Assembly (NCBI GenBank): GCA_026066175.1 | Contig: GCA_026066175.1_4721.1 | Direction: 5' to 3' (one strand) | Length of the DNA stretch: 64,000 bases | Source: a phage | Part shown: piece by piece, positions 4,413 through 51,106 of the stretch | How the letters are laid out: each line of letters begins with the position of its first letter | How positions within the stretch are numbered: position 1 is the first letter of the stretch | Notes under the pieces: model-generated | The model's database searches: none | What the model saw: the letters and a program-made list of their open reading frames with translations, nothing else | What the model was told of the DNA's origin: nothing | Position numbers and translations under genes: made by a program

Positions 4413-5051
4413 TTAGCCTAATTTACCTCCGGCGATGTTCGTGAAGTCTTCACCATCAGGGACCTGCAACAGAATACGTGCCATGTCCCAGTTGGTCAAT
4501 GTGATTGCTTTATCATCGATACTCAGTTCTGGTAGGTCGAGCTCATGATCATCGAACTCGTAGGAAATGCTCCATGTTTCATCAGTTTTAGGATCAGTTA
4601 TCAGCACACCGTCTGTTACACGCATGTAATCAGGGTGCAGCTCATTACTGAACGTGCTGAACGGATCGGTGTAACATTCAGCATAACCCTCGATCTGCTG
4701 ACGCTGTGCCTTCGTACGTAACTCAGGACACGCCATGATCAGCTGTCGGGAAATGCCGTTAGCCGCTCGGAAATCTTCCACGGTGATGCACGGCATCACC
4801 ACATCGTCATGGAAGATATTCTCCGACTGTCTCAACAAGGTCTTACGAAGTTCAGTATAGTTGATCTGATTGAACGTATCGAATGTTGCTAACGATTCCG
4901 CGTAAAAATGCTTTACGTGTTCGTTTGCGCCACCGAGACTGTTCATCAGCTTATGACCATACTCCATAAAGCTTTTATCGAGCCCAGTATTCATTTCTCC
5001 GAACCGTAGTGCACGATAGCTGTCTCGTCCACCTGTAAATATTTGCGCCAT
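4413..5051 (-). CDS. hypothetical protein
   Basis: 212-aa ORF; strong AAAGGAGG SD upstream of the ATG at 5051. Confidence 0.5.
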   Translation of the reverse strand: MAQIFTGGRDSYRALRFGEMNTGLDKSFMEYGHKLMNSLGGANEHVKHFYAESLATFDTFNQINYTELRKTLLRQSENIFHDDVVMPCITVEDFRAANGISRQLIMACPELRTKAQRQQIEGYAECYTDPFSTFSNELHPDYMRVTDGVLITDPKTDETWSISYEFDDHELDLPELSIDDKAITLTNWDMARILLQVPDGEDFTNIAGGKLG

Positions 5052-5066
5052 TACAGGCGTCCTCCT

Positions 5067-5304
5067 TTAGCATTGGTTATTGATTGCTTCTATTTCATCG
5101 ATATACGGTTCTACGTCATCGCCCTCCACGAATTCGTTGAACCAACAGTCAATCGTTGAGATAACCGGTGACTGATGTTCACATTTCTTAGATACCTTAA
5201 ACGGAACGTTGTTATCCATCATACCGAGTTCGGGTCGGAATCGCCCGAAATGTTTCGCAGTCCAAATGTCTGGGACGATATGGTTGTTCATAGCGTCTCC
5301 GTCG
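5067..5304 (-). CDS. RNAP beta-prime N-terminal subunit, exon 3 (starts inside the catalytic DFDGD motif)
   Basis: In-frame codons just upstream of tracked ORF 5067..5291 read C-GAC-GGA-GAC-GCT-ATG = (F)DGDAM, followed by MNNHIVP, matching bacterial beta-prime NADFDGDQMAVHVP. Boundary set after the G that follows the intron S element. Confidence 0.55.
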
Positions 5305-5683
5305 CTGTTTGTCGACTATATCTTCATCTTCATTGCGAAGAGACTCTCGTTTGGGTTTGTGTTTAACAAAGCCTACTCTACTCAACATCGCGTCTTTCGA
5401 TAGTCTGTGAGCACACATCTTAACGAATATTCGTGGGTTCCTACAGACAGGTGAATATTCTTGTTGAGATGCTTCGCTGCGGATTATTCCCGTCCTACCT
5501 CTTTTACCATACCCAGTTCATTACGCTGGCCCTCATCGATGTCACCATGATGAGTTGGTGTGTAGTCCGATTACAGAAACTTCCCGTCAATTAGAGAGTT
5601 TTAACTATGCTCCTGTTACCAGGAACCAGATCCCGACGGCATCAATAAATCAACGTAAGTTATTGATTTAATTGAAAAAACTG
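5305..5683 (-). mobile_element. group I intron B (td-like, ORF-less)
   Basis: Minus strand carries group I core elements in order: Q AATCCGCAGC (5490-5476), R TCACAGACTA (5410-5401), S GATATAGTC (5322-5314), ending in G at 5305. P3-like AACTCTCTAATTGACGGGAAG near 5615. Only about 9 nt separate S from the 3' splice site (short P9). Confidence 0.55.
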
Positions 5684-5696
5684 AAATCTGCATTAT
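5684..5696 (-). CDS. 13-nt micro-exon (AT-AAT-GCA-GAT-TT) encoding the NADF part of YNADFDGD
   Basis: Lies between intron A (ends in G at 5697) and intron B. Splicing exon1-microexon-exon3 gives in-frame ...MILKGS-Y-NADF-DGDAMNNHIVP..., recreating the universal YNADFDGD motif. Both upstream exons end in U as group I 5' splice sites require. Confidence 0.5.
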
Positions 5697-6059
5697 CTAA
5701 ACCTTCGATATGGTTCGCTACGCCATACCCGCACATACGTGCAGCTTACGTCTTTCACGTAAGAAGAGACTATATCTTTCACCCTCAGCTTTACCTGTTA
5801 GGGGCTCCCATTTCGGCGGTCGTTTGACCGGTGGTTTCCCACGCCGCTTGGCCCTAACGCCCGTAAGCGATAGTCGTTGAGCACATCTCCGTTCTGGAGA
5901 CTTCGCTGCGGATTCCCCAATCCTTACTGCTTTTACCGTACCTGAATGATTAGTTCAGCCCCATGCTCTGTTCCCAGGCATGGTTGGTGAGCAAGGCTCT
6001 AAGTAGGTTCCCGCTATTAGAGAGTTCCTCGTGATAGCATTACTGTGTCACTGGGCCTA
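5697..6059 (-). mobile_element. group I intron A (td-like, ORF-less)
   Basis: Minus strand core elements: GGAACTCTCTAATAGCGGGAACC (P3 region), GGTAAAAGCAGTAAGGATTGGGGAATCCGCAGC (Q, 5914-5905), TCAACGACTA (R, 5880-5871), GATATAGTC (S, 5776-5768), then P9 hairpins CTTACGTGAAAGACGTAAG and GCACGTATGTGC. No ORF of 60 aa or more in this stretch. Confidence 0.65.
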
Positions 6060-7305
6060 ATGACCCTTTCAAGATCATCACGCTTAACCCGATGGTATTA
6101 TCCTGCGGGTCGCGTTTAACCTTGGTGATTTCAAGACATTGGTTACTGCTACGGTCAAGTGATGGATTTCGAACAAAGCCACACACAATCCCATCGAACG
6201 GTGTATCAGCAATAAGCTCGTCATGCAGCTCGCTCATCATCGGATGATAATTGCGGACATGCTCTGCAACGAACGCACGGGCTGCTCTTGGTGAATAACC
6301 ACGATGGAATAACTTGGATTGGATATGTTCTTTATTGGTTAGTGTAAATGGTGCGTACGGAAAATGCAGATGATAATAACGATGGTTTGCTGTTATCGAA
6401 CTGATGACCGTACGTGTGGTGAATGGATGTAATGTACCTAATATGTTCTTACGTGTGATCCCTTTCTTCTTACCAATGAACTCATCGAAAATCGCCGAGT
6501 GATACTGCAACAGCTTCAATTGCACTTTCGCCATCCAGTTTTCTTTCTTTCTGGCGCTTAGTGGCGTGGTTGGATGATAGATGCTATTCAATGTTCCGAT
6601 GGCGTCTATCGCACCTTCCATTTTGCTGTCAGCGTAACGTCCTGTTGGCGTGTTCTCGATCACGAACATCATGGCTGCAGGAAAGCTGATGTACTGACTG
6701 AAGAATTTATCCCGATGAATACGGATGAATTCGCGTAGCGTATCAACCTTCTCCATGTTCTTCGGTCCACGTAGTGTTGGGCCTTTATACAAGATCTCCA
6801 TGATACGATCGAAGTTCTGTATAAAGCTATTTATACCGCGTCGTATTCCGAATACATCGAATTGCTGTTCCAGATAGTTCTTAAGTTCGATCGGTCGTTT
6901 TACGTTCGGACGGTAACTGGCATCAATGAGCCACGTCATCGTTTCAAAGCTTTTGATATTCAACTCGCTTGCCAGCACGAGATGGACCAACGGGTTAATG
7001 AACGCATCGATACCTTCCGGTACGCGCGCCCAGACCGTTGAACGAATCTCTTGTTCTGCTGGATAAGTGACAACCGTTTTACAGTTCGGGCACACCGTCC
7101 CTAATAACTCACCGCGATTATAGAAACCACAACCGCATTGCGGGGTGATATCCAAGGTATCGCTAGAGTAAACACGGGTGATGAAACTGTTTAATTTCTT
7201 CTTCTCTTCCACGACCTTCGTATCATAATCGTTCAACAATATCGGCGTAAAAGGAAGTTCTGCGAGCTGTCTATCGAAACTGACGATATCGAGCATGATG
7301 GCCAT
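6060..7305 (-). CDS. RNAP beta-prime N-terminal subunit, exon 1 (non-virion-RNAP-like)
   Basis: Zinc ribbon CGCG..x12..CPNC near the N-terminus. GKKKGITRKNILGTLHPFTTRTVISSI matches beta-prime [25 protein letters not shown]. Tracked ORF runs to a stop at 6040, but homology ends exactly where NADFDGD is expected; predicted 5' splice site is after U at 6060. AGGAG SD upstream of ATG 7305. Confidence 0.7.
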
Positions 7306-7337
7306 GGGGTATCTCCTGCAAATGAAAAAGAACGTTA

Positions 7338-7371
7338 GGACGTATAAGGGAGGGAGGTTGCCCTCCCTCCC
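7338..7371 (-). terminator. rho-independent-type hairpin downstream of the 632-aa gene, followed by a TTATACGTCC variant motif
   Basis: Perfect 10-bp stem GGGAGGGAGG / CCTCCCTCCC with a 4-nt loop (7348-7371); on the minus strand it is followed by TTATACGTCC and a T-rich stretch before the SD of gene 6060..7305. Confidence 0.5.
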
Positions 7372-7397
7372 GTCAGTTTACATCGAACGTTCTTCCA

Positions 7398-9296
7398 TTA
7401 GAACAGGTTGAATGCCCCGCCCATGCCGTTACCGCCCACATTCGGACGATCGTTACGTGCGTAGATGTTACCGCTGATGGTACCCAGACCACGAGCACGT
7501 GCTGCCATGTTACCACGAACAGCGGTACCTGCCAGATGCTGGATGTTCTCAGGACGGATGGTGAAGCCTGCTTCAGCAGCCGCTTCAATCAGTGCCTGCA
7601 GCGCCAGCGGATCGAAATCATAACGCATCGCCCAGCCAGTTTGTTCCCAGCTACCAGACAGAACGCGGTCGATGATTTCGTGACGAGCAACCACACGCTG
7701 AGACATCGACATATCGGTACGGTCGAAGCTGTCTTCCCAAGCTTCTACGGTATCCGGGTTAGTGATGTTCATCATGTACAGATCGTCCATATCACGAATA
7801 TCGTGACGGTTACCGTCCTGGTGGTTGTAGTGACCCAGCGGGATACGGTTACCGGTCGCGTAGACCAGCGGTGAGCCGTACGGATATTTCTTGCTGAAGC
7901 AACCCAGGGTAACATCATCGAACGCACGGAAGAGGGCTTTGTAGCCTTCGGAGTATTCCTGTACGTCCCCTTCAACATTACCCGAGAAGATCTTCTCAGC
8001 CGCCGGGATCATACGCAGCAGCCAGCTGTACTCACCTTCTTCTGGTACGTCGATAGAGATCAGCAGAGACGGATACAGAACCTGTTGCAGGAACTTGTAA
8101 ATCTGCTCGTTGGTTTGCGTAGACAGATCCAGCGGTGCAGTCACTTCAGGATCCAGCACCATCGCCAGAGCACCTGGGTTATGCGGACCAATACCACGAG
8201 CTGCGTTGCTGATTAAAGACTGCGCCCACGCCATGCCGCTGTTCAGCGTAGCGATGGTACCAATCAGACCCAGCACGAAGCTGTTCGGCGTGAACGCATC
8301 CAGTTCCAGCGGATACATGCTGGTCATTACGTAGCGCGGTTGGTACTGTACAGTTGGCGGTACCGGATAACCGTTAACCAGAACAGGACCTTGCTGGAAG
8401 GTCGGGTTCTGCGGGCTGTAGGTCAGATCGATATAACCGGTGGATGCAACCAGACGCTGCTGGCTATCGTAATCGCCCATCGCTTGACGGATGCGGTTAG
8501 AGATAGTTACAGTAATGTCGGAGCGTACCGGGTTACCCGCGATATCGCTATCCTGCATGCCGCTGGTGTTATACTGAACGCTACTGATCGGCTGATCGCT
8601 TGCCATCATACCCAGGTTGAACTGAGGCAGGCCCAGTCTGTCAGCAAAACGCATTTCGGTTGCCGTCTGGATCGCGTTATCCGCTGCGGAAAGCAGGGTG
8701 GTTGCCAGATGCGCAGATTCAGCAGTGATTTCATTGGTCACAACAGCCAGACCAGCGATACGTACCGTACCGTTAGCTTTACCACCGATAGCCGCATACA
8801 TCGCTGCCATGACTTCGTTGATGAACGTGCCGTTCAGGTTATCCACCCAAGTACATGGTACCAGGATGTTACCGTGAGGACCACGTTCTTCACGACGTGG
8901 CAGCGGAGCCAGGCCAGCAACCAGCGGAAGGACGTAACCGAAGAAGTGGTTATGATCACCCACTTTTACACCGCTCATCACAACCAGAGTCGGATACGGT
9001 ACGCTGTACTGATTCGGGTCAACCGCAACAAAGATGAAGTCGTCTTTGAACTGGGTATCTTCCAGATATTTCTCCATCAGACGACGGAGATTCAGTACCT
9101 GCTCGGAGCCGGTATTACGGCTGATACGACGGCTCAGTGTACGGTTAATCGTACGCATCGTATGAGTTACTTTAGGACGGTCAGCAAAATCTGCAGCGGT
9201 TTCGACCGCCTCGTTAGCATGCTGCGCCGTGCGGGTTTCAGCCACGCGGATGTCTACGTTATCGTTACCGTTATTGTTACGTACGTCTAAGCCCAT
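7398..9296 (-). CDS. abundant 632-aa protein; candidate phage-nucleus shell protein (chimallin)
   Basis: Size matches characterised chimallins; codon usage looks high-expression (CGT/GGT/CTG-rich). Own upstream promoter-like element and strong downstream hairpin. Lies immediately upstream of a beta-prime N-terminal gene, the arrangement I recall for phiKZ. No sequence comparison was possible. Confidence 0.45.
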   Translation of the reverse strand: MGLDVRNNNGNDNVDIRVAETRTAQHANEAVETAADFADRPKVTHTMRTINRTLSRRISRNTGSEQVLNLRRLMEKYLEDTQFKDDFIFVAVDPNQYSVPYPTLVVMSGVKVGDHNHFFGYVLPLVAGLAPLPRREERGPHGNILVPCTWVDNLNGTFINEVMAAMYAAIGGKANGTVRIAGLAVVTNEITAESAHLATTLLSAADNAIQTATEMRFADRLGLPQFNLGMMASDQPISSVQYNTSGMQDSDIAGNPVRSDITVTISNRIRQAMGDYDSQQRLVASTGYIDLTYSPQNPTFQQGPVLVNGYPVPPTVQYQPRYVMTSMYPLELDAFTPNSFVLGLIGTIATLNSGMAWAQSLISNAARGIGPHNPGALAMVLDPEVTAPLDLSTQTNEQIYKFLQQVLYPSLLISIDVPEEGEYSWLLRMIPAAEKIFSGNVEGDVQEYSEGYKALFRAFDDVTLGCFSKKYPYGSPLVYATGNRIPLGHYNHQDGNRHDIRDMDDLYMMNITNPDTVEAWEDSFDRTDMSMSQRVVARHEIIDRVLSGSWEQTGWAMRYDFDPLALQALIEAAAEAGFTIRPENIQHLAGTAVRGNMAARARGLGTISGNIYARNDRPNVGGNGMGGAFNLF

Positions 9297-20286: not shown

Positions 20287-21111
20287 TTAGTTGTTGCTTT
20301 CCGATAGGTTGATATAGTCAAACGCACGATCGCGTAAACAGGCATAACGAGGCAACGCGCTAAGGATAATCATCTTCAGCTGCATCGCAAGCGACATGCG
20401 TTCTTCCTCGGTCGCATCATCCCCCCATTTACCCGGTTTAACCTGGATGGGTTCCTGAGGATCCTGCGGAAAGATAAAACTCAACAGCAGGTAATCCGTG
20501 CGGAATTCCCATACCTCCCGTCCATCGCTATTGGTTTCTTTACGCAACGTGAACGGCTGACGCTCCGTGGTAGGATCCAACATCAGTGGACGACCACGAA
20601 CAACCTCAAGTTTACGTGGGCTGACGAACGTTGTTCGTTCTGGAAGATGCTTTTCAACCTCGTCGGTATCTAACAAGAACAAAATGATATCATCAAAATG
20701 CTCGGGTGCGAACGTGTGTATTGGCTCACCGTCGGTGTAGGAACAGATCGCCTGGAGTATGGGTGTTTTATCCGAGAAGCTCTGGCATGACCCGCGCGTG
20801 ATCGGTAAGGTATTCCAAAGATGTTCTGTAGACAACTCCACCGGCACCAACGGCTGATCATCGATGAACACCACGCAGGTCATCCCAACAGGAATATGTC
20901 CGTCGTTATTCGGTTCGAAGACCAAGCGAAGTTTACCGGTGATCAATGCTAACTCATCCGGCAGTAAACGATTCGCTGAACGCGCCAAACGGAATCCGGT
21001 TGCTTGGTGATATGGTTCGGGTTTATAACCACGGACAATAAGGGAAACCTCCGCAAGTTCGATGCTTACGAAGGCGTTTTTGATGTCCTTATTGTTCATC
21101 GTTAACGTCAT
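20287..21111 (-). CDS. hypothetical protein
   Basis: 274-aa ORF. Confidence 0.5.
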   Translation of the reverse strand: MTLTMNNKDIKNAFVSIELAEVSLIVRGYKPEPYHQATGFRLARSANRLLPDELALITGKLRLVFEPNNDGHIPVGMTCVVFIDDQPLVPVELSTEHLWNTLPITRGSCQSFSDKTPILQAICSYTDGEPIHTFAPEHFDDIILFLLDTDEVEKHLPERTTFVSPRKLEVVRGRPLMLDPTTERQPFTLRKETNSDGREVWEFRTDYLLLSFIFPQDPQEPIQVKPGKWGDDATEEERMSLAMQLKMIILSALPRYACLRDRAFDYINLSESNN

Positions 21112-43471: not shown

Positions 43472-44602
43472 TTATTTGGCTTCATTAAAATAAATATCAA
43501 CGGCACGTTCCGTTGCGTAGAGAAGACCCAGATTCACGGTCCCTACCACTTCCGGTGAACCGATGATACGGTTAGCGATACTGGTGCCACTGAAGATAGC
43601 ATCAAGGGTGTGCCCGTCTTCGGTTTTGTTCACACCATGACCCACGGAAGAGACAACGGATTTCGCCTGTGCGGCGAAGGTACCTTTATCCCCCATTCCC
43701 GCACCAAGGTCGTAACGCATGAAAATACGGATCGCGATCTGGTTCTCACCTAACGGATTACCGTCTATTCTCACGTTACTGTTATTGATGCGTCCCGTTG
43801 TTGCTTCGTTGAGTTTCAGTTCCTTAACACGTTTAGCTCGCGCCTTATCAGCGTCACCCACAAGTGCTGCCATGGTTTCGCTCATGTCTTCAATCTGAGC
43901 GCGGTACAACACATCGATCTGTACGACTTCACCATGCACGTCAGCGCGTGGGTTATACTGACTCATACGGCGTAACGCTTCAACCGCTTCCTGACTTTCA
44001 TCGCTCAGATCGGTTGCAATAGGTTCTTCCAGTGTTGCCAGGATCGTCCGAGGTTCAACATGATCGCCGATTTTCACCAAACCACGAATGTTGAGATGAG
44101 CGTCAACAATGAGCGTACGGCTCTTAATCGATGGGGTTACGAGACGATCGGCAAGATTGTCGAAGATATACGAACTGTCCTCGTGCGTTTCTGGAATATC
44201 CAGAATACCAACCAGAGACAACACGCCTGCGCGCCAAACAACCTGACCTGGGTTCCACCAATCCCGTTTAAAATAAAGACGATGGAAAACCACTACATCC
44301 TGGTCCTTAACGCGATCCCCGACTTTATAATCGGTAATGAGATCGTGAGGATAATACTTACCTGGTCCTTTCCCGATTATCGTACCGAGTTGGAAAACCT
44401 CTTCCCCTAATTCTGGATCGTCGTATTGTATCGTAAGCGCTGTTTTGGTGACCTTCTTCACAACACCATCGCCTTGAGCAGCTGCTGCGAAGAGTTTACC
44501 AACACGATGCGCGATAACAGTCTCGCCACCAGTGCGCCATGGTTGTACGTCGTAACCTTCAGCGGCTATCATGCGGTTGTGTTGGATGCCTATAAACACC
44601 AA
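43472..44602 (-). CDS. RNAP beta subunit, middle segment (probable exon 2 of an intron-split beta gene)
   Basis: [28 protein letters not shown] matches beta [35 protein letters not shown]...[21 protein letters not shown] matches beta GRHGNKGVIS...[22 protein letters not shown]. The tracked ORF begins at a TTG, not ATG, consistent with an internal exon. Confidence 0.6.
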   Translation of the reverse strand: [376 protein letters not shown]

Positions 44603-46273
44603 TCTCTTGGGCGAATTTAGTTCTTATTCAGTATTAACATACCGTTACCGAAATAAGACTGAGATTAGATTGTTCAGATAAGGTCGTTAATCTTATCCCG
44701 GAGGTGATGATAGGCACATCACCTCCCGCTTACGTTCTCACGCAAGAGCAGACTATATCACATCTCGTTTCAAACGGTGCTTCTTCAGCACCTCAACGAG
44801 AGTTCACTTCTTCCCAGCGCATCCAGCGCCATTCTCTTATCCAAGGAGAATGCCTCACTCGAGGGGTACAGGGGGATGAATCCCTTAGTCGTTGAACCGT
44901 CACCCTAGAACGTTTCACAACGATCCTTAGGCGATTGGCTGCGGATTACCCTTGGCCTGCGGACCACGAACTTTTGTCGCGGTCAACTCTTCATTTTTAA
45001 AGCCTGCTTCACGAGCAATACGTCTCGCTTCTCGCACGTCTAACGTTTCCGTTTCCGCTTTGGCTGAAGGCAGCATTGGGCGTCCCCGCAATTCAATGAA
45101 TCTCGTCCATACGTCACCGTATAAACGGACCCGCTCTTTGTAAACAGAATAGTAGATATAACGTTTTCCGTCAGGAAATTTAGTCATTCCATCCGACTTT
45201 AAACGGTAATTGAGTAACGTAGTAGATATACCCATTTCTTCAGCGCAATCGACGGCCGAAAGGTACAACAGAGGTACATCATTTTCAGGAATGACGACAA
45301 TAGCACGTTTGTTGGTTGTCTTCTCCAACTCCAGGATACTATCTTCGACTTCTCGCCATGGCGTCTCATCAGTAACCCACTTAACTTGATAACAACCATT
45401 AACGACAGGTTGGTTCTTGTCGTTAACGTACATCGACGCAGTGGATAACTTAACACCAATGTGATTCGCGAATTCAGTCAATGATTCGAAAAGATGAATC
45501 TCTTTTGTTATCGTTGACCTTGCAATCACACCCTTACTTCCCGTATCCGTCAACGTTGCTAACTCGTATTTGGTGGGAATACGCCATGGTTCATCGCCGT
45601 AATCTTTGCGGTACTGCTTACGTTCAGGAAACGCTCGCTGTTTGCCTCTATAGACACGATGATGAATGAAGTCGATATTCACACCAAGATCGCGTGCCGC
45701 TTCCGTCATGGATGGATATCTGGTTACAACACCGGTATCAACATCACGAACCTGAATAGGTTTACCGTAGGCAGCAATTGAACGTTTACGCATGTTCATA
45801 ATGCGAGCATGCTGATTGTTCTCTTTCTGCGTAACCCATTCAAGATTGTCATTCTCGGCGTTACCGTCGGGATCAAGGTAGTTATTAAGTCTGTTGCCGT
45901 CCTTGTGGTTCACATGGAGCAAATGCGCATCATCGATGTTACGGAACGTTAACATTAGAAGCCTGTGCATGGAACGGTAAACCAATGTTCCATCGTGACC
46001 TCGAAACGAATAACGATAATACCCAGCAATGATGGTGGGCAAATATTCAAACTTCGATTCCTTGTTACGCAATGTTCCATCTATGGATATCTCCAGGAAC
46101 GGGAATTCCGGTACGGTCTTAAATACCTTCTCACTCATTGACTATATTCCTCTTGTGCAGTGAAACTAACTACACTTTCGTAATATAGCCTTAATTCTGT
46201 TTACATTGAAGCCTTAATCATCTCTATCAGCAGCAGGTACTGCAAGTGCTGATGTACTCATTATTGACGAGCT
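44603..46273 (-). mobile_element. group I intron (td-like) carrying an HNH homing endonuclease ORF; boundaries approximate
   Basis: Minus-strand core elements 3' of the HNH ORF: Q GGGTAATCCGCAGCC (overlapping the last HNH codons, about 44950-44937), R GGTTCAACGACTAAGGG (about 44899-44883), S GATATAGTC (about 44760-44752), then P9-like hairpins. Beta homology in the upstream ORF ends at ...SVYGETKPYDEKTDG. Confidence 0.55.
44927..46138 (-). CDS. HNH homing endonuclease (intron-encoded)
   Basis: 403 aa; HNH motif HVNHKDGNRLNNYLDPDGNAENDNLEWVTQKENNQHA; basic C-terminal DNA-binding-like region; lies between two beta segments. Confidence 0.8.
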   Translation of the reverse strand: MSEKVFKTVPEFPFLEISIDGTLRNKESKFEYLPTIIAGYYRYSFRGHDGTLVYRSMHRLLMLTFRNIDDAHLLHVNHKDGNRLNNYLDPDGNAENDNLEWVTQKENNQHARIMNMRKRSIAAYGKPIQVRDVDTGVVTRYPSMTEAARDLGVNIDFIHHRVYRGKQRAFPERKQYRKDYGDEPWRIPTKYELATLTDTGSKGVIARSTITKEIHLFESLTEFANHIGVKLSTASMYVNDKNQPVVNGCYQVKWVTDETPWREVEDSILELEKTTNKRAIVVIPENDVPLLYLSAVDCAEEMGISTTLLNYRLKSDGMTKFPDGKRYIYYSVYKERVRLYGDVWTRFIELRGRPMLPSAKAETETLDVREARRIAREAGFKNEELTATKVRGPQAKGNPQPIA

Positions 46274-49200
46274 ACCATCCGTTTTCTCGTCGTAGGGTTT
46301 CGTTTCACCGTATACAGACACAATGTTTGCGTTAGGTGCGAGGTAAGCAGAAATACCTACGTCCCCACTATCCTTCGTACCTTCGGATACAACACCAATG
46401 TCCGACTTGTCGTACTCACGATCGCGTGCGCGTCGAAGCGATGTTTTCGAACGACCCCCGATACCGGTCATCGTTGCTTCTTCACCCTGCTTGATATCCA
46501 GCATCGGGTTGGTTTCATCGATGACGATAGAAGCACTGTCGTCAAGGATTTGGTTCCAAACGCTCACCGGACTGATTGAGATCTTCTGTCGGTTGCCTTG
46601 GCTGCTGTTCTCGTTTTGACGAATAGCACCAACCAGATCCTTATACACCAACTCAGCGAACTTATCGTACGTTTTGAAGCGCTGGTAGTTCACGTCGTTC
46701 GTGTTAGGTGCCCAATCGTCCAGAAGCAGTTCAACCGCACGTAATAACAACATGGCGAAATCAGTCGGTTCGCCCATGTTCTGTAATAACGTACGACTTA
46801 CCGGGTCGACGAAAAGACGCTCCATGAGTTCAAGTTCGCGAAGATGACGAACCTTAAGACCTGCACCATCGACAACGTTAAAATAGATATCCCGATTGTC
46901 GAAAGCACCTCGAGCGTAACCAATGTAGTTACGGTATTCGTTGAATCCGCCTAACAACAATGTCGTCATTCGATCATCTTTACTGAAGATCAAACTTTCA
47001 TCGTCGAAGCTCACCGCGAATTCATCCGATGCTAATCCCATACGAGAACCACGAGGTACCGTACGGTAGTTCGCTTTAAGATGTTCTAATAACGGTGTAA
47101 GACCACCTAAGTAACTTAACACAACACCAACCGGAATACGTACGCCCATGAACTCAAGGTCAGCGGCTTCGATGGGCATCTTCGCGGCATTGATACCGAA
47201 GAAATCAGGGAACGTTCCAACCGGCGTTGGGGTTTGATTCGGTTCGTAAACGTATAACTGATTCTGACCATCCACCGCCAGGAATTCGCCGTTGGTGTTT
47301 TTGGCGAACGTTAAGAATCCACCCGCCAGCTGTTCGGTGAATAAATCTTCACCGATGTGTTCCGGCAACGTTTTGATATCGAGGCGTATGTCCCAATCCG
47401 CAAATTGGATTTGGGTGTAGTTACGTGCAAGCACCGCGAAGTAATACGGAACTTTGACAGACGGATCAAAGACGTTACCACGTTTTAAGGTGGTTAAGGG
47501 CGAGGTTTTATCGTAATACATCGCTGTGAGTTGACGTGTTAACCAACGACCAGCATTATTAACCACGCGTTCTGAACGCTTAACGAACACCTTACCGTAG
47601 GCGGTACTCAACGCAACTTCGGATGACGATACCTTTCTGATTGGTTTATCGACACGTTGTTTACGCATTCGATATTTAATGCCGTTAACGACATAAATGC
47701 CGTCCTTACGAACCTTCGGTAACATCACCGGGAACGTGGTCGGAACACCGCCTACCGGAGCCAGCTTGATCGTGATGACCTGGTAATCACCCATCACGTC
47801 AACAACATCTTCAACTTTATATCCGGTAACAGGATAGCCCGCTTGCTGCACCGCCACAACGGCTGCTGCGATGTCCTTTTGCATGACATGTTCGACGTAG
47901 TGTTTATCCCATACGGCAAGCGTCGATTTGCACAAGCTCTTATCAACGATAACGTCCGCTTCCGGCATCACCTTCTCAGGTGCTAATTTCGCGGCTTTTG
48001 GTTTAACCTCAACGTATTCAGCAAGCGTGAGTCCAGAACCGTCAGGTGCTTCAATTTCATGAATCGCGTCAGCGTTACGCATCGCTGCTTTATATTGAAC
48101 GCCGCTTAATTGACCAGCATCCGCGAGGTCGCTTGCACGTACCAGCACTGCATCGGATAACGACTGAATATATTCACCGTGCGTTTTCGGTAACGTTGCC
48201 GCATCGAAGACATCAACTTTTTCTTCCGGCATGTCATCGTTGACAACCTCAAAGAGATCATCGGTGATGTCTTGATCTTCGTCCGGTTGAAAATCGGGCT
48301 GAACTTCAACGCCAGGGACTTCACGAACATCTTCAAACGCACGTTCAACAACCGCGTTCCATGCTTCAGCGTCGTCATCTTCATCCGATCCTCCGATCAA
48401 CTCGCTTTCCAGTTCATCGGGGTCAAGAACGGTATCAAGGTCCTCACCGTTAGGAAGCACGACATCACGTTCATCGTACTCCGCATCGGGACTGTCTGCG
48501 AGAATATCACGCTCTTGACGAAGAACCTGCTCCTCTTCTTGTTTCTGTTCTTCTTCATTGGCGCTCTGCGACCACAGACGGGTTACCGCCATCATCCAAC
48601 GACGCTGGAACGTTTCAAGCGTTGTCTTATCAAGTTCCTCGCCTTCCTTCGCTAAACCCGAACGCCATTCTTCCATTAAACCAAGATTCAGAGTAAAGAA
48701 ATAGACGCCGTCCGTAAATACAACGTTAAGCTTATCCAGCGAAGCACGGTCCAATGATACCATCGTGCTGTTCTCACGATCGACACCTAACCAACGGAAG
48801 AAGTCAAAGAACGACAGCTCCTCGGAGGTGGCAAAATTCATGAGGTTATTACGGGTTGGGGCTTGTTGTGTCGTACGCATCAACGATATCTTCGGTAACG
48901 TCGACGGGATACGGAATAACAAGAACTGCTGACGGTCGCTTTGTTGGGCGATCTCGTTTGCTTGCGTCCAAATCGTTTTACGCACGTTGAACCATTCATC
49001 ATACCAACGGGTCAGTGTCGGACGATAGATGTACATGTGGTTAAGATGCGCATAGTTAGCCACGATCTGGGCGTTGATGTTCTTCTCAACCTTGCTAAGA
49101 TCGGTGACCAAACGAAAACGACGATGCGATGCACGGTAATCCAGTTTCGCACGCGGTAGCTGGAATCGCTGATCGCGTCGAGGTGCGCCTTGCTTGGTTG

Positions 49201-49423
49201 CAAGATCATCCGCGAATGATATCCAAAGCTGGGCGCTTTCTTTGCTCAGCATGTATTCGTTTTCAGGAGGACCGATTAACGAAGGATCGGTTGCTGTATA
49301 ATGATAAACCGCATAACGCGGCAGCTGCAAAAGCTGCACCAAACGCAATCTAGGTGATAATAACTCTTGATAACGTCGTACACCGAATTGTCTGTAGTAA
49401 TCAAGGTATTTAAGTTTTGCCAT
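46214..49423 (-). CDS. RNAP beta subunit, N-terminal segment (virion-RNAP-like set); last ~20 codons may be intronic read-through
   Basis: 1069 aa. C-terminal TGIGGRSKTSLRRARDREYD...EGTKDSGDVGISAYLAPNANIVSVYGETKPY matches beta LGPGGLTRERAGFEVRDVH...[30 protein letters not shown]. Start is translationally coupled to the upstream beta-prime gene. Confidence 0.6.
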   Translation of the reverse strand: MAKLKYLDYYRQFGVRRYQELLSPRLRLVQLLQLPRYAVYHYTATDPSLIGPPENEYMLSKESAQLWISFADDLATKQGAPRRDQRFQLPRAKLDYRASHRRFRLVTDLSKVEKNINAQIVANYAHLNHMYIYRPTLTRWYDEWFNVRKTIWTQANEIAQQSDRQQFLLFRIPSTLPKISLMRTTQQAPTRNNLMNFATSEELSFFDFFRWLGVDRENSTMVSLDRASLDKLNVVFTDGVYFFTLNLGLMEEWRSGLAKEGEELDKTTLETFQRRWMMAVTRLWSQSANEEEQKQEEEQVLRQERDILADSPDAEYDERDVVLPNGEDLDTVLDPDELESELIGGSDEDDDAEAWNAVVERAFEDVREVPGVEVQPDFQPDEDQDITDDLFEVVNDDMPEEKVDVFDAATLPKTHGEYIQSLSDAVLVRASDLADAGQLSGVQYKAAMRNADAIHEIEAPDGSGLTLAEYVEVKPKAAKLAPEKVMPEADVIVDKSLCKSTLAVWDKHYVEHVMQKDIAAAVVAVQQAGYPVTGYKVEDVVDVMGDYQVITIKLAPVGGVPTTFPVMLPKVRKDGIYVVNGIKYRMRKQRVDKPIRKVSSSEVALSTAYGKVFVKRSERVVNNAGRWLTRQLTAMYYDKTSPLTTLKRGNVFDPSVKVPYYFAVLARNYTQIQFADWDIRLDIKTLPEHIGEDLFTEQLAGGFLTFAKNTNGEFLAVDGQNQLYVYEPNQTPTPVGTFPDFFGINAAKMPIEAADLEFMGVRIPVGVVLSYLGGLTPLLEHLKANYRTVPRGSRMGLASDEFAVSFDDESLIFSKDDRMTTLLLGGFNEYRNYIGYARGAFDNRDIYFNVVDGAGLKVRHLRELELMERLFVDPVSRTLLQNMGEPTDFAMLLLRAVELLLDDWAPNTNDVNYQRFKTYDKFAELVYKDLVGAIRQNENSSQGNRQKISISPVSVWNQILDDSASIVIDETNPMLDIKQGEEATMTGIGGRSKTSLRRARDREYDKSDIGVVSEGTKDSGDVGISAYLAPNANIVSVYGETKPYDEKTDGSSSIMSTSALAVPAADRDD

Positions 49424-49426
49424 GAG

Positions 49427-51106
49427 TTAGGCTCCACGAGGTCCCGTTAAGTTGCGTAATAGGAACGCAACCGTATCGTAACCAATATCAATGTTGAATT
49501 TATTTTTACCGCTTACCCAGAAAGCACGCTTCTTGTGCGAGTTGGTAATTTCGTCGATGGCTTCCATGGAATAAAGAACGTTAACAGAGACCGTATCACC
49601 GTCGAAATCGGCCCCGAGCCCGGCGAGAAACACTTGGCCGACTTGGGTCGTTTCTACGAACGATGCTTTTAATGACCAATCTGGGTATTCCCACGCCATA
49701 TAACGATAGCCTTCCATCGGTTGCCAGCTATCGTCGAGTTCTATTCTCGGTTTTGTATTAACCGTCGTTCTCACATAGCAAGTTAACGGTATAACTGACT
49801 GCATCCCGGATACCGGATAACGTGTAACCATCGCACCGAGTTTATTCCAAAGATGGTAACCACTCAGATAAATCAACTCGCAATAGGTAATTGGGTGAAC
49901 ATTCGCACCAGGTTTGTTAAGCATCTCTGGTGGTAATTCACTCATACCACGGAACAGCCGGAATGAGTTGTTGTTCACATAGACCAAACAGAGATAGCGA
50001 CCATTCACCATGATAGGTTCGTTACGTACACCAGGATCGCTTAGGGTGTTTAATAAACGTTCGATGCCGTCCCAGGTTGTAAAGTCATCGATGGTATCTG
50101 GGTCTAGCGTGACACGTTCACGTTCCATCGTTTCGGTATCGATAAGCTCAGCTTCAGTAACATCGCGAACAAAGATTTCTTGTAATATCCCTGTACGTAA
50201 CGCATGTTGCGTTATCGGAAGGGCTGCTTTGCTCATCTGGTATAGGCCGAGCTGTACAGACGTACACGATGTTTGGTTTGGAGAGCCAAGAACTTCGGTC
50301 GTTGGAATAACTGCTGAAATAACGTTACGGGTTGAGTTCCAAACACGACGTGAACCGAACTTACCTTGGAAGATCCCTTTCTTACCCTGGAACATATCCA
50401 ACAGCAATGCGTAGATATCATTGAAGGTTCTTTGCAGGCTCCAGCGCTGTCCGTCGTAGACAGGATCGTTGTAGTCCTTTAACCCATCGGGAACGGTATT
50501 GGAGATAGCAAGGAAACGACGATAAAGCTCCGTGATTTCTTGTTCGCTTTCATACCCGCCTTCTTTTACTTCTATTTCACGAAGACCAGCAGGTAACACC
50601 AATAAATGACGGGTCATCGCTTTGAACATGTTTTCTTCGACAACTTTAATACGCAGTTCTCGTTGCGCTGAACCTGTTGAAACGAACATGATCTCCGCAA
50701 CGTGTTGTGCGAAGAAACCGTAGCCGGTTTGTCCCGTTAACGCATCAGCGGCAACGAAATCACGTTGTTCTGGATCCCATCGCGCATAAGCTTTACCGGA
50801 CATGATATCGCCATAAAGGTGTTTCAATCGAATAAGGCGATCGTAAATGACCGGATGCAAGATTTCCACTTTACACTCGATGACCGCAAAGCGGCGATCA
50901 CGATCTTCGCTTCCCGCGCTCCCAAAAATGGTGTACGAATAAAAACCATCGTCATGGAAATTACCCGTGCTCGGGTCGCGGATACTCATGCTGGTAATCT
51001 TAGGAAGGAAACGCAACTGCTGCTTATCAAGATGCAGTATACTGATATTGAACGGCTCTCTGACTTTAGCCATGGATGCACTCCTTAAATAAGGCGGCGG
51101 TATCAT
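49427..51106 (-). CDS. RNAP beta-prime N-terminal fragment with catalytic DFDGD motif (virion-RNAP-like set)
   Basis: 559 aa. FQGKKGIFQGKFGSRRVWNSTRNVISAVIP (beta-prime lid/rudder region) and LAGLGADFDGDTVSVNVLYSMEA (NADFDGD Mg-binding motif). My line count puts the start ATG 1 nt off the tracked coordinate; tracked coordinates are used. Confidence 0.8.
   Translation of the reverse strand: MIPPPYLRSASMAKVREPFNISILHLDKQQLRFLPKITSMSIRDPSTGNFHDDGFYSYTIFGSAGSEDRDRRFAVIECKVEILHPVIYDRLIRLKHLYGDIMSGKAYARWDPEQRDFVAADALTGQTGYGFFAQHVAEIMFVSTGSAQRELRIKVVEENMFKAMTRHLLVLPAGLREIEVKEGGYESEQEITELYRRFLAISNTVPDGLKDYNDPVYDGQRWSLQRTFNDIYALLLDMFQGKKGIFQGKFGSRRVWNSTRNVISAVIPTTEVLGSPNQTSCTSVQLGLYQMSKAALPITQHALRTGILQEIFVRDVTEAELIDTETMERERVTLDPDTIDDFTTWDGIERLLNTLSDPGVRNEPIMVNGRYLCLVYVNNNSFRLFRGMSELPPEMLNKPGANVHPITYCELIYLSGYHLWNKLGAMVTRYPVSGMQSVIPLTCYVRTTVNTKPRIELDDSWQPMEGYRYMAWEYPDWSLKASFVETTQVGQVFLAGLGADFDGDTVSVNVLYSMEAIDEITNSHKKRAFWVSGKNKFNIDIGYDTVAFLLRNLTGPRGA

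Follow-up and report, generated by a model that had tools for sequence, protein, structure and literature searches.

How does a jumbo phage encode the active site of an RNA polymerase in a gene whose reading frame stops just ahead of it? The question is raised by a 64,000-nt stretch of phage DNA (the window; GenBank assembly GCA_026066175.1, contig GCA_026066175.1_4721.1), in which an open reading frame (ORF) at 7305..6040 on the minus strand resembles the beta-prime subunit of RNA polymerase (RNAP). An earlier interpretation made from the letters alone (the sequence-only reading) had noticed that this ORF ends where the catalytic NADFDGD motif is due and that no ORF occupies the next roughly 750 nt, and had proposed two tandem group I introns flanking a micro-exon. 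The ORF list and the alignment of homologs bear out the starting observations. The ORF encodes 421 amino acids (aa) and ends in ...VMILKGSLGPVTQ (...ILKGSLGPVTQ), with its stop falling just ahead of the NADFDGD position of homologs; there is no ORF of at least 100 aa in 6040-5292, and a frame of 74-79 aa, starting DGDAMNNH..., picks up after the gap. Over 5000-7400 the window is 92% identical at the nucleotide level to Escherichia phage vB_EcoM_Goslar (Goslar), a nucleus-forming jumbo phage, which identifies its source as a Goslar-like phage of this kind. It is very likely that two tandem group I introns, here called alpha and beta, interrupt the YNADFDGD codons of the beta-prime gene around a 13-nt micro-exon, and that splicing restores the frame. 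The parts of the gene are as follows.

6063..7305, minus strand: exon 1, 1243 nt, last bases AAA GGG T; 99% aa and 92% nucleotide identity to Goslar
5697..6062, minus strand: intron 1 (alpha), 366 nt, group I, td-like, without an ORF; starts CAUUAGGCCC, ends UUUAG
5684..5696, minus strand: micro-exon, 13 nt, AUAAUGCAGAUUU = ATAATGCAGATTT, codes (Y)NADF
5305..5683, minus strand: intron 2 (beta), 379 nt, group I, without an ORF and without P9; starts CAGUUUUUUC, ends ACAAACAG
5067..5304, minus strand: exon 3, 238 nt including the stop, starts CGACGGAGACGCTATG at 5304, reading C GAC GGA GAC GCT ATG ... TAA

The gene as a whole (7305..5067, minus strand) is identified by homology as the ortholog of phiKZ gp55, the N-terminal beta-prime subunit of the non-virion RNA polymerase (nvRNAP). 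The conceptually spliced product has 497 aa, reads ...ILKG-YNADFDGD-AMNNH, and matches phiKZ gp55 (PDB 7OGP_A) at E 8e-75 across residues 21-476 in a phmmer search; this alignment, which the sequence-only reading had suggested as a check, has no gaps at either junction. Exon 3 codes (F)DGDAMNNH... through to the C-terminus and aligns without gaps to the gp55 residues that follow DFDGD. The spliced product is colinear with the uninterrupted homologs in RAY, Eowyn and PhiPA3, C57, C59, C72, C75 and NADFDG are invariant in a five-sequence alignment, and the Pfam family RNA_pol_Rpb1_2 is recorded on the contiguous 497-aa form. Its predicted junction-spanning peptide is ILKGYNADFDGDAMNNH, also given as GYNADFDGDAMNNHIVPDIWTAK.

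The strongest evidence for the two-intron model comes from the sequences of intron-plus and intron-minus alleles in relatives, which were drawn from IMG/VR, metagenomes and isolate assemblies. An automated parse, in which a degenerate coding consensus had to be restored by insertions of 250-1900 nt ending in G, resolved 21 loci into eight intron configurations. The motif codons were restored in 21/21 loci, and the 497-aa product was obtained in all 18 loci whose gene start is covered. A further intron type, gamma, appears among these configurations (the caret marks an insertion point).

Alpha with an HNH-type ORF, alone: L017; no internal exon
Gamma at GCN^GAY, alone: L015, L018; no internal exon
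Gamma and gamma: L009; internal exon of 18 nt
Beta with an HNH/NUMOD1 ORF, and gamma: Goslar; internal exon of 13 nt, CGACGGTGACGCT
Alpha and beta: the window, L026, L028, L029, L030, L032; internal exon of 13 nt
Alpha and gamma: L031; internal exon of 26 nt
Alpha, beta and gamma: L010, L014, L016, L019/L033, L020; two exons of 13 nt
Another ORF-bearing intron at T^AY and a new intron at GAY^TTY: L024; internal exon of 11 nt

Alpha is missing from Goslar, L009 and L015, and beta from L017, L015, L009 and L031; each window intron thus has an allele without it, which fixes the junctions to the base. The end of exon 1 is set by the alleles lacking alpha, GGTTATAAT in Goslar and GGATACAAC in L009. 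The micro-exon abuts exon 1 in both of these and abuts exon 3 in L017, in agreement with the micro-exon at 5696-5684 and the exon 3 start at 5304 that had been proposed from the letters. A twintron was considered and ruled out, since the 13 nt between the introns are coding and are contiguous with exon 1 or exon 3 in one-intron alleles. The exact layout of the window, in which a third intron in this gene is absent, recurs in at least five independent public assemblies, and its spliced protein is identical to that of L032 (GCA_027262755.1). E. coli assemblies with this layout include GCA_027262755.1 and GCA_041342935.1. Identical proteins also arise from different intron sets in L009, L010 and L020. 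Scans of IMG/VR with intron-specific patterns found these introns in no contigs other than Goslar-like ones.

Both introns contain the conserved elements of a group I ribozyme.

5914-5905 (alpha) and 5485-5476 (beta), minus strand: Q box AATCCGCAGC, once per intron
5880-5871 (alpha, TCAACGACTA) and 5410-5401 (beta, TCACAGACTA), minus strand: R box
5776-5768 (alpha) and 5322-5314 (beta), minus strand: S box GATATAGTC, once per intron
5768..5914, minus strand: alpha catalytic core, with the P4 3' strand/Q, P6, P7 5' strand/R, P7.1-P7.2, P3 3' strand, P8 and P7 3' strand/S
5314..5485, minus strand: beta catalytic core, with the Q, R and S boxes and, between them, a P6 extension, P7.1, P7.2, the P3 3' strand and P8

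The two td-like cores that had been recognised by eye, with each box occurring twice, are found at these positions in the right order on the coding strand. By chance the three boxes would be expected 0.11, 0.51 and 0.53 times per 64 kb, and the sole other co-located set in the window belongs to a third intron near 45 kb. When scanned by E-value, the Rfam model Intron_gpI (RF00028; curated gathering score 50 bits) matched beta at 5674..5305 with 49.1 bits (E 3.7e-11 locally, 1.8e-9 for the whole window) and alpha at 6083..5746 with 27.9 bits (E 8.7e-5 locally, 0.0043 for the whole window). Both matches lie on the coding strand and span the full model from end to end. The global identity of alpha and beta is about 63%, a value inflated by lenient alignment, and their guides and peripheral helices differ. 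No ORF longer than 40 aa was found inside either intron in the ORF list of the window, and so neither carries the endonuclease ORF of a mobile intron. An isolated GATATAGTC box also occurs at 20311-20319 on the plus strand, without Q or R boxes and without an Rfam match, and is probably a chance occurrence.

The T4 td intron (IA2) resembles alpha at its 5' end, where the exon sequence GGGU is followed by an ...AGGCC... guide, and it likewise has matching Q, R and S boxes as well as additional helices separating P7 from P3'. The td intron and the Bastillevirinae introns differ from those of the window in host gene, insertion sites and peripheral helices, and td-like here denotes likeness and no formal subgroup. 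Local similarity of 70-76% was also found to unannotated intron regions of SIOphi-like Bacillus phages.

Splice-site pairings were located with an unbiased junction scan, which looked for a guide G pairing with the 5' exon and for upstream neighbours pairing with the 3' exon. The scan and the alignments gave the following elements.

6063..6066, minus strand: 5' strand of alpha P1, exon GGGU, with a U6063.G6056 wobble at the splice site; invariant in six genomes
6053..6056, minus strand: alpha internal guide GCCC (3' strand of P1), pairs with GGGU
6058..6062, minus strand: alpha P10 guide CAUUA, five Watson-Crick pairs with micro-exon UAAUG (5695-5691)
6031..6051, minus strand: alpha P2 hairpin GUGA...UCAC, which includes GUGAC, the guide supposed in the sequence-only reading
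5627..5639, minus strand: beta guide; GGAUCUG (5633-5627) pairs with micro-exon CAGAUUU to give a P1 of 7 bp, and CCGUCG (5639-5634) pairs with exon 3 CGACGG to give a P10 of 6 bp

P1 and P10 were also recovered with RNAalifold, which predicted the alpha P1 hairpin independently, and the alpha P10 pairing is kept in all six of the aligned alpha-bearing genomes. Beta P1 likewise has a wobble at its junction (U5684.G5633), and its P10 lengthens to 8 bp in L010 and Goslar. In Goslar the exon strand of beta P1 reads CCGACUU and the guide GAGUCGG, which amounts to two double compensatory changes and one single change relative to the window. As had been foreseen, both 5' junctions follow U (U6063 and U5684) and both introns end in G (G5697 in alpha, G5305 in beta). 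Within the micro-exon, nucleotides 2-6 are the target of alpha P10 and nucleotides 7-13 are the 5' strand of beta P1, so that 12 of its 13 bases (five plus seven) serve as splice-site identity elements. Since the two segments do not overlap, recognition by each intron is independent of prior splicing of the other.

One detail of the sequence-only reading had to be revised, namely the end of exon 1. That reading began intron 1 at 6059, ended exon 1 with ...GGGUCAU at U6060 and used GUGAC as the guide, giving a product of 498 aa with ILKGS-YNADFDGD; the present boundary lies 3 nt upstream, at U6063 (AAAGGGU|CAUUAGGCCC). A junction at U6060 would preserve the reading frame, and a 5-bp GUCAU/GUGAC pairing can be drawn for it in the window. 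Against it, it offers no P10, and its guide is not conserved, with 2 bp left in L010. The GUGA strand instead covaries with UCAC as part of P2, where a G-C pair is replaced by A-U in L010, L014 and L016 (GUGA/UCAC becomes GUAA/UUAC). The extra serine, which would be an insertion beside the catalytic loop, is missing from Goslar, L009 and all aligned homologs, and L017 and L024 carry different introns directly after GGGT, with no in-frame U 3 nt downstream. We therefore give the U6060 junction little credence, and the product has 497 aa rather than 498; restoration of YNADFDGD in frame is unaffected. In cDNA the U6063 junction would read AAAGGGTATAATGCA, and the U6060 junction AAAGGGTCATATAATGCA, also given as GGGTCATATAAT.

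For each intron a full secondary structure was built by hand that takes in P10, the P3/P7 pseudoknot and additional helices separating P7 from P3'; it contains 106 pairs in alpha and 117 in beta. Such extra helices are typical of IA-type phage introns. In the window, all core helices P3-P8, including P7 and the P3/P7 pseudoknot, can be drawn in both introns without a non-canonical pair. Counted over alignments of the six genomes that carry both introns, 99.8% of paired cells in alpha and 99.4% in beta are retained, compared with 32-41% after the partners had been shifted by 1-3 columns. Each structure contains four double-compensated pairs, and broken cells number one or a few. P4, P6 and P7 never vary across the six genomes and hence are uninformative for covariation.

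Public sequence collections hold what may be spliced products of this gene. The exact conceptual spliced protein of Goslar occurs in one Logan contig, SRR32224763_123 (L034, gene at 219-1712; 8,818 bp), which matches Goslar with 100% identity along 4,767 aligned nt, minus exactly the 1440-nt beta and 355-nt gamma introns, and which keeps the Goslar 13-nt micro-exon. The simplest reading of this contig is an assembled spliced transcript, in which case it would document inclusion of the micro-exon in vivo together with both junctions of Goslar beta, the homolog of window intron 2. A second Logan contig, SRR17070135_424875 (L035), contains at 84-1577 a contiguous 497-aa gene that is 97-99% identical to several relatives and could be either cDNA or a truly intron-less allele. 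These two contigs, in which the ORF is already contiguous, are the only sources of a joined 497-aa coding sequence (CDS) in a collection of 15 billion proteins, and no other intron-less alleles were seen among the loci examined. For phiKZ, a purified spliced protein exists (PDB 7OGP, named PHIKZ055 + PHIKZ056.1).

Several points weigh against the two-intron model. Alpha P1 has only 4 bp, and beta is without P9. Both Rfam scores fall below the gathering score, that of alpha far below, and a default scan at the gathering threshold reports neither intron and returns only the unrelated third intron; the covariance search thus matched both introns as the sequence-only reading had anticipated without passing the curated cut-off, and large insertions in P5, P6 and P7.1-7.2 account for the low or near-miss scores. 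The structures were built from the window sequence, which biases the slid-partner control in their favour, and the compared genomes are only 3-8% divergent, so that most pairs never vary. Single-sequence folding gave unremarkable minimum-free-energy z-scores (-1.85 and -1.36), which were not used as support. Contig SRR32224763_123 could in principle be DNA of an intron-less derivative, and the spliced protein of the window, which would bear on alpha, is absent from the 15-billion-protein collection. Finally, Oxford Nanopore (ONT) transcriptomics of phiKZ did not detect splicing of the predicted introns in its RNAP genes (PMC10914365).

Could the locus instead be a decaying pseudogene, or encode separate unspliced polypeptides of 421 and 74 aa, with the introns as relics and catalysis left to another polymerase set? 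Public pipelines enter precisely this pair of ORFs as two distinct hypothetical proteins, neither intron has an endonuclease gene, and the window holds a second beta-prime-like ORF (51106..49427, minus strand, 559 aa) with an uninterrupted GADFDGD at 49612-49598, directly upstream of an interrupted beta-subunit gene. This ORF bears on a doubt raised with the original proposal, that a separately encoded protein might supply the NADFDGD segment. It is a full, very divergent paralog and not a complementing fragment, and presumably belongs to the other (virion-type) polymerase set; its local match to the gp55-type protein covers only 26 residues, and so it cannot replace that subunit. In phiKZ, moreover, it is gp55 that supplies the catalytic DFDGD of the nvRNAP (PMC8287921). 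Comparison of the exons with Goslar revealed 115 synonymous against 7 non-synonymous codon differences, the mark of strong purifying selection on the coding sequence. Compensatory changes maintain the intron helices, the micro-exon codons are conserved in every configuration, and Goslar, whose gene is interrupted likewise, is a viable laboratory phage. A loss of function of either kind is accordingly the least probable of the explanations considered here.

A different concern is whether the micro-exon is retained. The two ribozymes might work jointly and excise 6062-5305 in one piece, micro-exon included, by obligatory or regulated skipping as in Twort orf142. Skipping is documented around exons of 23 nt in Twort and 34 nt in Coxiella 23S rRNA, in the SIOphi DNA polymerase gene and in engineered Tetrahymena pairs (PMC10136302; PMC11878797), and a 13-nt exon leaves little room for two ribozymes to dock at once. 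The product would however be frame-shifted (...ILKGSTETL*) and devoid of the active site, and thus cannot be the functional outcome. The guides and peripheral helices of alpha and beta differ, a kind of difference that suppresses skipping in engineered pairs (PMC10136302), and the cDNA-like Goslar contig retains its micro-exon. Removal of the two introns as a unit, whether obligatory or regulated, is hence very improbable, and exon skipping can only be a by-product.

The model of two separately excised introns makes the following predictions, in which self-splicing, its order and its efficiency are inferred. The precursor RNA would carry alpha and beta as two independent autocatalytic introns 13 nt apart within the Y-N-A-D-F|D-G-D codons. 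Each ribozyme would find its own junctions through its own guide, alpha by GCCC/GGGU and CAUUA/UAAUG, and beta by GGAUCUG/CAGAUUU and CCGUCG/CGACGG, and either intron would be able to splice first. Guanosine-initiated transesterification at each U|N, followed by ligation after each terminal G, would join exon 1, the micro-exon and exon 3 into an mRNA coding the 497-aa subunit with an intact Mg-binding NADFDGD loop.

The relatives also suggest where the two introns came from. In L017, alpha has an ORF of roughly 1 kb in the P1 loop, where the window has only CAUUAG; its 323-aa product gives weak, below-cut-off matches to HNH_3 and to I-HmuI NUMOD-like sequences. In Goslar, the 14-bp P9 stem of beta, which window beta lacks, encloses a 336-aa ORF that matches HNH_3 and NUMOD1. 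Alpha and beta would thus be ORF-less descendants of mobile introns whose endonuclease-bearing forms persist in L017 and Goslar, respectively. Homing endonucleases evolve through a cycle of invasion, endonuclease loss and intron loss, and the pairing of ORF-less window introns with ORF-bearing homologs fits this cycle. On this view the 27 coding nt of the active site are a hot spot for homing in this group of phages.

Goslar provides the closest comparison. At the locus Goslar_00185-00188 (MK327938), its homolog of beta is 92% identical, occupies the same TT^C site, is annotated 'Intron_gpI' and is followed by an HNH/NUMOD1 endonuclease gene. Goslar differs from the window in lacking intron 1, in bearing the endonuclease ORF in beta P9, and in having an unannotated 355-nt gamma after GCT^ATG. 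The Goslar micro-exon (CGACGGTGACGCT) is likewise 13 nt long but differs from that of the window and codes DGDA; gamma, the micro-exon and the joined CDS are all unannotated in the Goslar record.

An intron within the motif has precedents; for the tandem form, none came to light in the literature searched. In phiKZ the same orthologous gene adjoins chimallin and carries a group I intron in the same NADFDGD codons (gp55/gp56), and introns in gp55 and the intron endonuclease gp56 have been listed (PMC11512511, PMC10914365). The phiKZ-type interruption differs from that in the window: it consists of one intron, belongs to another sequence lineage, lies elsewhere in the motif (N^A) and leaves no micro-exon. 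A sample of interrupted genes in chimalliviruses, taken from roughly 300 records, includes the phiKZ-like phage U1B (CCT AAT | intron | GCG GAT TTT GAC GGC GAT; Rfam 80.4 bits), Serratia phage KpGz_1, with an intron at N^A as in the phiKZ type, and Erwinia phage pEa_SNUABM_54, with an intron at G^D. In PhiPA3 gp210, a chimallivirus virion RNAP beta-subunit gene, the catalytic-site codons are invaded by a group I intron with an HNH endonuclease (PMC11620839); this is a different gene with a single intron and an endonuclease, in contrast to the ORF-less pair of the window. When jumbo phages co-infect a cell, endonucleases of the gp210 type play a part in the competition between them (Birkholz et al. 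2024, PMC11620839).

Natural tandem group I introns around a very short exon are known from Twort orf142, which has three introns, and from the Coxiella burnetii 23S rRNA gene, and there, as in the window, both splice sites of the short exon are set by the neighbouring ribozymes (PMC10136302). Their internal exons measure 23 nt and 34 nt, compared with 13 nt in the window and 11 nt in L024. Alpha and beta are distinct from each other, unlike Twort introns 2 and 3, which are nearly identical copies of type IA2, and neither the Twort nor the Coxiella host gene contributes a polymerase active site. In fungal and protist mitochondrial genes such as cox1, exons of fewer than about four codons between self-splicing introns are regular and defeat annotation (PMC10352661); unlike the window, these cases are organellar, often maturase-dependent and non-viral. 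In an incomplete literature collection, neither tandem nor triple group I introns were found described for a jumbo-phage polymerase gene, nor 11-13-nt phage exons, nor the Goslar micro-exon, and no case like the mitochondrial mini-exons came to light for a phage or for an RNAP active site. The sequence-only reading had called a micro-exon in an RNAP motif unusual. What stands out as unusual is that the introns are in tandem and that the micro-exon is so small, and not the presence of an intron in the motif, for which the phiKZ type (N^ADFDGD) is a precedent. As far as the literature was searched, these micro-exons would rank as the shortest that occur naturally between group I introns outside organelles.

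Goslar-like phages use at least five insertion sites in this short stretch (T^AY, GCN^GAY, GAY^TTY, TT^Y and GCN^ATG), occupied by at least four intron lineages; other chimallivirus genera have introns at two further sites, N^A and G^D. The introns stack in at least eight combinations, with up to three per gene, leaving micro-exons of 26, 18, 13 or 11 nt. Tentatively, the 27 nt that code Y-N-A-D-F-D-G-D-A might be a contested homing site, at which multiple occupancy would confer immunity in interference competition during co-infection, as each resident intron would destroy the target of rival intron endonucleases. The separation of transcription from translation by the phage nucleus may make such dense packing of introns tolerable.

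The gamma introns (Goslar L001, 5805-6159; L009, 5252-5601 and 5620-5976) have a P1 of only 3 bp and match Rfam partially, with 16.7 bits. Copies lie at two sites, with 5' exons ending in ACGCU or similar (AAYGCU^, GAYGCU^), which suggests a lineage re-targeted to a near-repeat within the motif. In one L009 copy the 5' splice site follows C and not U (GAUGCC|AGAGCC). The idea that alpha is Goslar gamma relocated was rejected, since similarity is patchy and confined to the AGGCCC box at the 5' end and to some 80 nt at the 3' end; the two are left as related but distinct lineages. L024, from a Shigella sonnei assembly (GCA_021016215.1, 4244-5982), has a 1379-nt ORF-bearing intron at T^AY (Rfam 23.5 bits) and a 349-nt intron at GAY^TTY (56.6 bits), separated by the shortest micro-exon among the loci here, the 11-nt ATAACGCAGAT. 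Synonymous codons around the motif follow the intron type, with CTTGAAAGGGT|ATAATGCAGATTT in alpha alleles, CCTTAAGGGATACAAYGCT|GACTTTGAC at the second gamma site and CCTCAAAGGTTATAATGCCGACTT in Goslar. Such tracking is as expected for co-conversion of the flanking exon during homing. Goslar-like contigs of about 235-248 kb were found in assemblies labelled E. coli O157, Salmonella Enteritidis, Salmonella Corvallis, Shigella sonnei, Shigella flexneri and Enterobacter hormaechei, and in metagenomes.

These interruptions affect annotation. The catalytic subunit of an essential polymerase is entered as two or three 'hypothetical proteins' in the GenBank/RefSeq records of Goslar, and public assemblies of Enterobacteriaceae and of metagenomes, well over a hundred in all, repeat this mis-annotation. 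The 13-nt exon (11 nt in a relative), with 12 bases divided between P10 and the next P1, is also a natural minimal test case for how adjacent group I ribozymes avoid exon skipping, which has so far been approached mainly with engineered Tetrahymena pairs. Eight configurations at one active site, with exons less than 10% different, constitute a natural system for the homing cycle and for endonuclease competition in a tractable E. coli host.

The neighbourhood of the gene supports its assignment.

7398..9296, minus strand: chimallin (nuclear shell) gene, directly upstream of the polymerase gene; annotated 'nuclear shell protein' in Goslar

The Pfam family Chimallin_Phikzvirus falls on the same upstream gene in related loci, and the order of chimallin followed by the polymerase gene is common to the window, Goslar, RAY and PhiPA3. 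Because the chimallin gene lies directly upstream, the pair is orthologous to phiKZ gp54-gp55.

The third group I intron of the window lies at about 46216-44612 on the minus strand, in a gene for an 'RNA polymerase beta subunit' (43472-49423), and scores 51.4 bits in Rfam at 45152-44729. Its ORF (46138-44927) encodes a 403-aa HNH/NUMOD1/I-TevI-type endonuclease. The exons of this gene span 49423-46217 and 44611-43472, with the insertion right after ...AADRDD; the Goslar ortholog gp207 is uninterrupted (AVDRDD-GKRL), and the intron itself has no Goslar match. The gene pieces gave no result in Pfam and PDB sequence searches and were identified by tblastn. This intron resembles that of PhiPA3 gp210, which is described as inserted after two conserved aspartates. 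In its 3' tail, 32 nt (about 44671-44702) are 100% identical to T-even phage records (40 records), one of them at the thymidylate synthase (td) intron locus.

Between the chimallin stop and the start of the polymerase gene, a G+C-rich perfect hairpin, GGGAGGGAGGGCAACCTCCCTCCC, lies at 7345-7375 on the minus strand and resembles a terminator or attenuator; in the cDNA-like Goslar contig the corresponding site is read through.

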